Below, in pieces: positions 356 to 1,483 of a DNA stretch of 64,000 nt. Source of the stretch: Escherichia coli (lineage in GTDB: Bacteria > Pseudomonadota > Gammaproteobacteria > Enterobacterales > Enterobacteriaceae); NCBI RefSeq assembly GCF_013122565.1, contig NZ_CP053258.1; one strand, written 5' to 3'. Positions within the stretch are counted from its first letter, which is position 1; each line of letters starts with the position of its first letter. The notes beneath the pieces were generated by a model. That model saw only the letters and a program-made list of their open reading frames with translations, searched no databases and had not been told where the DNA came from. The translations under genes were made by a program, and so were the position numbers.

Positions 356-1483
356 TTGAATTACCAAATGATTACCACGGACGATGCGCTGGCTTCTTTG
401 TGTGAAGCCGTCCGTGCCTTTCCGGCGATAGCCCTGGATACTGAATTTGTTCGTACGCGCACTTATTACCCGCAGCTGGGGTTGATTCAACTTTTCGATG
501 GCGAGCATCTGGCGCTAATTGATCCTCTCGGGATCACCGACTGGTCACCGCTGAAAGCGATCCTGCGCGATCCGTCCATCACAAAATTTCTCCATGCAGG
601 CAGTGAAGATCTGGAAGTGTTCCTCAATGTCTTTGGCGAATTACCACAACCCTTGATTGACACGCAAATCCTTGCTGCCTTCTGCGGACGCCCGATGTCA
701 TGGGGTTTCGCTTCCATGGTGGAAGAGTATTCCGGCGTTACGCTGGACAAGAGTGAATCGCGCACCGACTGGCTGGCCAGACCGCTGACCGAACGTCAGT
801 GTGAATACGCAGCGGCGGATGTCTGGTATCTGTTACCGATCACCGCCAAGCTTATGGTAGAAACGGAGGCCTCCGGCTGGCTACCTGCGGCGCTGGATGA
901 ATGCCGCCTGATGCAAATGCGTCGTCAGGAAGTCGTTGCGCCGGAAGATGCCTGGCGTGATATCACCAATGCCTGGCAGTTACGCACACGCCAACTGGCC
1001 TGTCTGCAACTGTTAGCCGACTGGCGACTGCGCAAGGCGCGAGAGCGCGATCTGGCGGTGAACTTTGTCGTGCGTGAAGAGCATTTGTGGTCGGTAGCGC
1101 GTTATATGCCGGGAAGTTTAGGCGAACTGGACAGCCTGGGTTTATCCGGTAGCGAAATCCGCTTTCACGGTAAAACGCTGCTGGCGCTGGTGGAAAAAGC
1201 GCAGACATTGCCGGAAGAGGCCTTACCGCAGCCGATGCTTAACCTGATGGACATGCCGGGTTATCGTAAAGCGTTTAAAGCGATTAAGTCGCTGATTACT
1301 GACGTGAGCGAAACGCACAAGATCAGCGCCGAATTGCTGGCATCGCGTCGGCAAATCAACCAACTGCTGAACTGGCACTGGAAACTGAAACCGCAGCACA
1401 ATTTGCCGGAGCTGATTTCCGGCTGGCGTGGTGAGCTGATGGCGGAAGCATTACACAATTTATTGCAGGAATATCCGCAGTAA
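356..1483 (+). CDS. rnd: Ribonuclease D
   Basis: 375-aa ORF, DEDDy exonuclease plus HRDC features; starts at TTG, consistent with the known UUG initiation of rnd. Confidence 0.92.
   Translation: MNYQMITTDDALASLCEAVRAFPAIALDTEFVRTRTYYPQLGLIQLFDGEHLALIDPLGITDWSPLKAILRDPSITKFLHAGSEDLEVFLNVFGELPQPLIDTQILAAFCGRPMSWGFASMVEEYSGVTLDKSESRTDWLARPLTERQCEYAAADVWYLLPITAKLMVETEASGWLPAALDECRLMQMRRQEVVAPEDAWRDITNAWQLRTRQLACLQLLADWRLRKARERDLAVNFVVREEHLWSVARYMPGSLGELDSLGLSGSEIRFHGKTLLALVEKAQTLPEEALPQPMLNLMDMPGYRKAFKAIKSLITDVSETHKISAELLASRRQINQLLNWHWKLKPQHNLPELISGWRGELMAEALHNLLQEYPQ

Follow-up and report, generated by a model that had tools for sequence, protein, structure and literature searches.

Evidence for UUG initiation of rnd (RNase D) downstream of the fadD/SroD hairpin-U tract in Escherichia coli

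The window analyzed here is a stretch of 64,000 nucleotides from an Escherichia coli genome (contig NZ_CP053258.1), and the locus under study is its fadD-rnd-yeaX region. An open reading frame of 375 aa runs from 356 to 1483 on the + strand and its first codon is TTG (356-358), as given by both the sequence and the list of open reading frames. The product was compared with structure and profile collections. It is identical to PDB 1YT3 (1yt3_A) at 373 of 375 residues, with residues 1-375 aligned (E=1e-254) and the PDB sequence opening with MNYQM. The NCBIfam model NF008089 (ribonuclease D), which has 375 positions, matches residues 1-375 from residue 1 onward with 750 bits (cut-off 516), and the rnd profile TIGR01388 scores 545 bits with a match that begins at residue 5. 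Pfam places DNA_pol_A_exo1 (PF01612), HRDC (PF00570) and RNAseD_HRDC_C (PF21293) on the protein. A DEDD 3'-5' exonuclease domain with two HRDC domains behind it, together with the equivalog-level match, identifies the frame as the RNase D (rnd) orthologue. A 501-nt query from the locus found a match at fadD-rnd in 5425 of the 5426 complete E. coli genomes. The exact-sequence look-up of the 375-aa form of this allele gave no match; the allele is rare (one contig) and this result was given no weight. The features of the region are listed below together with what each rests on.

1-286, + strand: 3' end of fadD (long-chain-fatty-acid--CoA ligase), stop TGA at 284-286; open reading frame list and RefSeq annotation of matching E. 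coli genomes
245-330, + strand: SroD sRNA (Rfam RF00370), overlapping the last 40 nt of fadD and ending in the U-tract
249-277, + strand: candidate sigma-70-like rnd promoter, GTGACG (249-254), 17 nt, GACAAT (272-277); own scan
304-326, + strand: GC-rich hairpin AGACGCCGG-TTAAT-CCGGCGTTT; terminator scan and RNA fold, present in 79/79 species
324-331, + strand: U8 tract, the terminator tail and, by the account in PMC5934652, a U-rich translational enhancer of the rnd mRNA; sequence, Term-seq and that source
341-343, + strand: TAA closing the rnd frame upstream; sequence
344-348, + strand: Shine-Dalgarno-like AGAGA; anti-SD pairing, near-invariant in 79 species (-12..-8)
350, + strand: common SNP of E. 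coli between the SD and the start codon, T in the window (2149 genomes) and A in K-12 (3263)
356-358, + strand: TTG initiation codon of rnd; open reading frame, 79-species comparison, INRI-seq and curated b1804 start
356-1483, + strand: rnd CDS, RNase D, 375 aa; PDB 1yt3_A, NCBIfam NF008089 and Pfam
359-367, + strand: rnd codons 2-4 (Asn-Tyr-Gln), translated; codon-position entropy
368-370, + strand: ATG codon 5, the RefSeq/PGAP start in E. coli and probably an internal Met; no SD in range, ATT in Enterobacter sp. RIT418

An intergenic region of 69 nt lies between the fadD stop (284-286) and the TTG of rnd, and the opening codons of the gene are TTG AAT TAC CAA ATG (M N Y Q M). The original prediction held that the rnd frame opens at TTG 356-358 with no in-frame ATG before codon 5, and the sequence and the open reading frame list agree with it, codon 5 (368-370) being the earliest in-frame ATG. 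Upstream, the frame is closed by the TAA at 341-343, so that no start-type codon can lie earlier than the TTG, which is the first one after this stop with none between. The bare presence of a TTG here proves nothing, because the chance of an in-frame TTG or GTG among the eight codons between the TAA and the ATG is about 1 in 4 (own estimate, with uniform codons). The case for UUG therefore rests on SD spacing, conservation, codon periodicity and experiment.

The only favourable anti-SD pairing in 320-371 is that of AGAGA at 344-348 (-2.9 kcal/mol), and its spacing is 7 nt to the TTG and 19 nt to the ATG. An SD-like element serving ATG 368-370 was searched for in the same pairing scan of 320-371 and none was found. 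This bears on the view that translation starts only at ATG 368-370, with the TTG and codons 2-4 forming an untranslated leader, for which an ATG lacking any SD within range is a difficulty. A small hairpin (AUUUG/CAAAU, 354-369), with the UUG and part of the AUG inside it, was also predicted, in the minimum-energy as well as the centroid fold. Its pairing is preserved by the CAA/CAG synonymous variation (U-A or U-G). This hairpin may well be incidental.

The comparison was made over 79 loci, each from a different species of Enterobacteriaceae, which were collected by six peptide patterns; one of these was MNYQMITT, and this gives the set a slight bias to conserved N-termini. All 79 species have a start-type codon as codon 1 of rnd: 75 have TTG and 4 have GTG. 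At codon 5, 78 species have ATG, a constancy that would suit initiation at the ATG alone, and the remaining one, Enterobacter sp. RIT418, has ATT, which argues against it; that species has kept the TTG, and the next ATG in its frame comes at about codon 49, after the first exonuclease motif. Hardly any change is seen across the set in the SD (-12..-8), while the spacer (-7..-1) is variable at every position. In codons 2-4 the entropy is 0, 0.13 and 0.94 bits at the first, second and third codon positions, respectively, and the changes observed (AAT/AAC, TAC/TAT, CAA/CAG) are synonymous except for one N-to-T clade and one Q-to-H. Three-base periodicity begins at codon 2. Periodicity together with synonymous change in codons 2-4 therefore marks them as translated sequence and not as leader, which, along with a first codon restricted to TTG or GTG, stands against a start confined to the ATG. 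Within E. coli itself, two alleles of 341-372, distinguished by position 350 alone, account for 2149 + 3263 = 5412 of 5426 genomes, and 345-368 is kept exactly in at least 5412 of the 5426 complete genomes.

Published initiation profiling gives experimental evidence on the same point. In Table S2 of the INRI-seq study (PMC9825163) the rnd start (b1804) at K-12 1887991, which is the TTG, carries a peak in 5/5 replicates, with 13-26 CPM against a threshold of 5. In that study, peaks were assigned from footprint 3' ends 12-18 nt from the annotated start, and a ribosome bound at the ATG would give 24-30 nt; in these tables the rnd peak is thus at the TTG and not 12 nt further on, contrary to what initiation at the ATG alone would give. 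In INRI-seq a synthetic E. coli transcriptome is translated in a cell-free system in the presence of retapamulin, from constructs with just 30 nt of leader (PMC9825163). The in vivo Ribo-RET values of Meydan et al., as tabulated in the same source, show zero signal at rnd, which is as expected for a scarce protein, so that the in vivo footprints favour neither start. Profiling with initiation inhibitors had been proposed as a check in the original prediction, and in these tables the check comes out at the TTG in vitro (5/5 replicates) with a Ribo-RET value of zero in vivo. A reporter study that cites the rnd work places UUG and AUU 6-8 fold below AUG and GUG (PMC3592434).

The N-terminal peptide expected is (f)MNYQMITTDDALASLCEAVR for a UUG start and MITTDDALASLCEAVR for an AUG start. 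RNase D was absent from the entries of the two N-terminomics supplements that were searched (TRAINSPOTTER and Salmonella riboproteogenomics), and a full-text literature search for RNase D with UUG found nothing discussing the rnd start codon. The N-terminal sequence of RNase D was reportedly determined by Zhang and Deutscher in 1988 (NAR) and is said to match MNYQM..., and the same authors are said to have raised rnd expression by changing UUG to AUG.

The database records are in conflict over this start. The curated K-12 gene (NC_000913.3, b1804) has 1128 nt, which corresponds to the TTG. In RefSeq/PGAP records of E. coli, rnd begins from the ATG of codon 5 (371 aa) in 62/62 of those sampled (H1, H8, H76-H135), the two that were inspected (H1, H8) giving a gene of 1116 nt, and the segment 338-367 is without any annotation in 60/60 genomes sampled evenly from the 2149. 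The large E. coli protein clusters have 371 aa, and the Salmonella and most of the Citrobacter entries have 375 aa; the listing of protein homologues covered Escherichia, Citrobacter and Salmonella only. The uniform PGAP start, the predominance of 371 aa in the E. coli clusters and the TIGR01388 match beginning at residue 5 may all be read in favour of the ATG as the sole start. Against this stand the 375 residues of curated K-12, PDB and NCBIfam NF008089 alike, and the Salmonella rnd locus, which has the same arrangement of hairpin, U8, AGAGA and TTG AAT TAC CAA ATG and is annotated with 375 aa by the same pipeline. The ATG start is thus an inconsistency of automated start selection and is not evidence against UUG. 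The automated RefSeq records of E. coli begin rnd four codons late and the Salmonella equivalent is annotated correctly; the error passes to users in N-terminal proteomics, start-codon statistics and RBS modelling. The UUG had been described as preserved here, which is true of the DNA and fails for most database records, where the RefSeq start in E. coli is the ATG. The Salmonella locus (L084, 1850-2328) also has minE/minD downstream of rnd in place of the yeaX of E. coli, so synteny breaks immediately 3' of the gene.

It is also possible that both codons are used, the UUG for the main 375-aa form and AUG 368 for a minor 371-aa proteoform alongside it. The AUG is placed in an A/U-rich, weakly structured stretch 12 nt downstream of a poor start codon, and initiation profiling in E. 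coli often reveals alternative starts in the same frame (PMC9825163). This AUG is nevertheless without an SD, one species does without it altogether, and among the INRI-seq supplement entries listed the gene appears in just two places, the annotated-TIS table and a per-gene table, and has no alternative site there (PMC9825163); we regard such dual use as unlikely. An exclusive start at the ATG is hardly credible in view of the evidence set out above. We therefore hold with high confidence that UUG 356-358 is the main start of rnd and gives the 375-residue MNYQM... protein, and the AUG of codon 5 is probably an internal methionine. UUG initiation of rnd, as originally predicted, is borne out by the placement of the SD, by conservation and periodicity over 79 species, by the species with ATT at codon 5, by the 5/5 replicates in the INRI-seq table and by the curated K-12 and PDB sequences. 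Neither the UUG start of rnd nor its U-rich leader is new; both were characterised in the 1980s-90s and are part of the curated K-12 annotation. The rnd papers of Zhang and Deutscher (NAR 1988, J Biol Chem 1989, PNAS 1992) are said to cover the UUG start, the leader hairpin and the U8. The by-products of the present analysis are the annotation inconsistency and the comparative support for an rnd-linked role of the hairpin-U tract, which is considered in the following.

The GC-rich hairpin at 304-326 with its run of eight T, in which published 3' ends fall, is an intrinsic (rho-independent) terminator. Strong Term-seq 3' ends at K-12 1888017, 1888018 and 1888020 correspond to 330, 329 and 327 of the window (PMC7815308 supplement), where these ends in the U-run are assigned both to sroD and, as its primary 3' end, to fadD. 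The covariance model of SroD matches here over its full length (1-86 of 86), scoring 115.2 bits (gathering score 50; E=3.5e-24). One more strong 3' end, internal to the open reading frame, was reported about 108 nt inside rnd (K-12 1887883, minus strand; window ~464) in one condition (PMC7815308 supplement). The U-rich region upstream of rnd is described, in the passage of PMC5934652 that cites Zhang & Deutscher 1992, as a translational enhancer which binds 30S subunits. One sequence would thus have three roles, as gene terminator, as sRNA 3' end and as translational enhancer of the next gene. Between the last T of the U8 (331) and the TTG there are 24 nt. The statement that the start lies 25 bp after the fadD terminator was hence right in its distance, counted from the last T at 331, and too narrow in its label, the hairpin-U8 being also the terminator of SroD and a part of the rnd leader, to whose U-tract the cited account gives the enhancer role. 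Directly after the U-run there is a conserved GC-rich box (332-337), reading GACGCC in E. coli and GGCGC in most other genera; it is able to pair with one arm of the hairpin, and an alternative structure is possible.

The canonical form of this intrinsic terminator and the strong Term-seq ends classed as the primary fadD 3' end would suit a plain reading, in which the hairpin-U8 does no more than terminate fadD, plays no part in rnd expression and lies 25 nt before the UUG by coincidence. The comparison between species was examined with respect to this reading. The stem is kept in 79/79 species and has undergone compensatory change twice independently (CGCCAG/CTGGCG and TGCCGG/CCGGCA), and the U-run is U8 or U6AU in 79/79 species, at 23-29 nt from the start codon; a distance held so closely in 79 species is not what an incidental position would lead one to expect. 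In Dryocola (L082, 1298-1480) a separate hairpin-U terminator belonging to fadD lies about 150 nt further upstream and the rnd-proximal hairpin-U6 is still kept, which again speaks against a function for fadD alone. Both Dryocola hairpins were missed by the standard terminator scan, apparently since the stem extension consumes the shorter U-run, and were folded directly instead. In the Citrobacter amalonaticus group (L013, 1288-1500; L021) an insertion of 141 nt is flanked by two copies of the hairpin, of which the copy beside fadD is U-less and the copy beside rnd has U8, so the U8 copy has stayed with rnd, contrary to a terminator serving fadD only. Inverted repeats (GAGGTGATC...GATCACCTC) occur within the insert, which is possibly a small mobile element. 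Together with the enhancer role in the rnd mRNA described in the relevant passage of PMC5934652, these observations make the terminator-only reading improbable, and the comparative data support a tie of the hairpin-U element to rnd.

In Enterobacter, Klebsiella, Kosakonia and relatives (L026-L083 and others) the U-run reads U6AUGGGCGC, which creates an ATG. This ATG is in frame with the TTG in some species (24 nt) and out of frame in others (23 nt; with a TAA in Klebsiella). It was considered as an upstream extension of rnd and rejected, the distance to the TTG being 23 or 24 nt by genus and a TAA intervening in Klebsiella. In one such locus (L050, 1459) the mechanical open reading frame call extends rnd to 389 aa, and a 396-aa gene call in public data (P0036) may reflect a similar upstream over-extension.

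The sequences which may drive rnd were then considered. In our own sigma-70 scan of 150-350, no promoter-like sequence was found between the hairpin and the TTG. The best candidate in 150-350 is the pair at 249-277, within the end of fadD, which scores 8/12 and is below the standard scan threshold; judged by its position, it would place the TSS near 284, for a leader of some 72 nt. Among the rows listed from the Cappable-seq and SMRT-Cappable-seq supplements, no TSS of rnd was matched by coordinates or gene names. The last 15 codons of fadD (239-277) were compared in 74 species, and their synonymous third positions show no variation in CGA GAA. CGT GAC GAA (239-256) and hardly any in AAA. GAC AAT (266-277), against a background third-position entropy of 1.18 bits. 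These invariant blocks overlap the unpaired 5' 14 nt of SroD and the weak sigma-70-like -35/-10 pair. Either a seed region of SroD or an rnd promoter could explain the invariant synonymous sites.

From these observations a mechanism may be outlined for the expression of rnd. Its transcripts would come from the weak putative promoter inside the end of fadD or from fadD read-through, and, because no promoter-like sequence lies downstream of the hairpin, rnd would be reached only by reading through the hairpin-U8. The rnd mRNA would accordingly run through the GC-rich hairpin and the U8, 25 nt upstream of the UUG. Many transcripts end in the U-tract and form the fadD 3' end and SroD, as the published Term-seq ends and the Rfam match show. 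In those which read through, the U-tract may serve as a single-stranded landing site of the 30S subunit, probably via ribosomal protein S1, as the literature would have it. Zhang and Deutscher (PNAS 1992) reportedly proposed the rnd U-tract as a landing site that aids 30S binding. The weak SD AGAGA with its 7-nt spacer would then set the UUG in the P site, in keeping with its spacing and conservation. Its imperfect pairing with the initiator tRNA makes UUG a several-fold poorer start than AUG, and initiation here would likewise be several-fold less efficient, with RNase D kept scarce.

We may therefore suggest, tentatively, that the hairpin-U tract has been selected as a part of rnd and not of fadD, as a combined attenuator and enhancer in which the terminating U-run becomes the ribosome landing site for the UUG on read-through. 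We regard this as possible but less likely than not. It is compatible with the lineages that have a separate fadD terminator and with the synonymous sites that are invariant among the final 15 codons of fadD. If the suggestion is true, RNase D output would be the product of read-through and UUG efficiency, and RNase D synthesis could be tied to the induction of fadD/SroD at stationary-phase entry.

The locus may finally be compared with known systems. The K-12 rnd (b1804) is at the same locus, and its TTG, SD, hairpin, U8 and codons 2-5 are identical to those of the window; a single base differs over 200-399 (T350A), and RNase D has two amino-acid substitutions relative to PDB 1YT3. The strain of the window is nearer to non-K-12 lineages, and an O157:H7 record is identical to it over 200-399. 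SroD (RF00370) is matched in full length, with the same hairpin-U tract at its 3' end. Among other genes with weak non-AUG starts, such as infC with AUU and UUG starts generally, translation is held at a low rate by a rare start codon, as in rnd. We know of no IF3-type feedback for rnd; infC is autoregulated through IF3 discrimination of its start codon, whereas rnd would depend also on the U-tract upstream.
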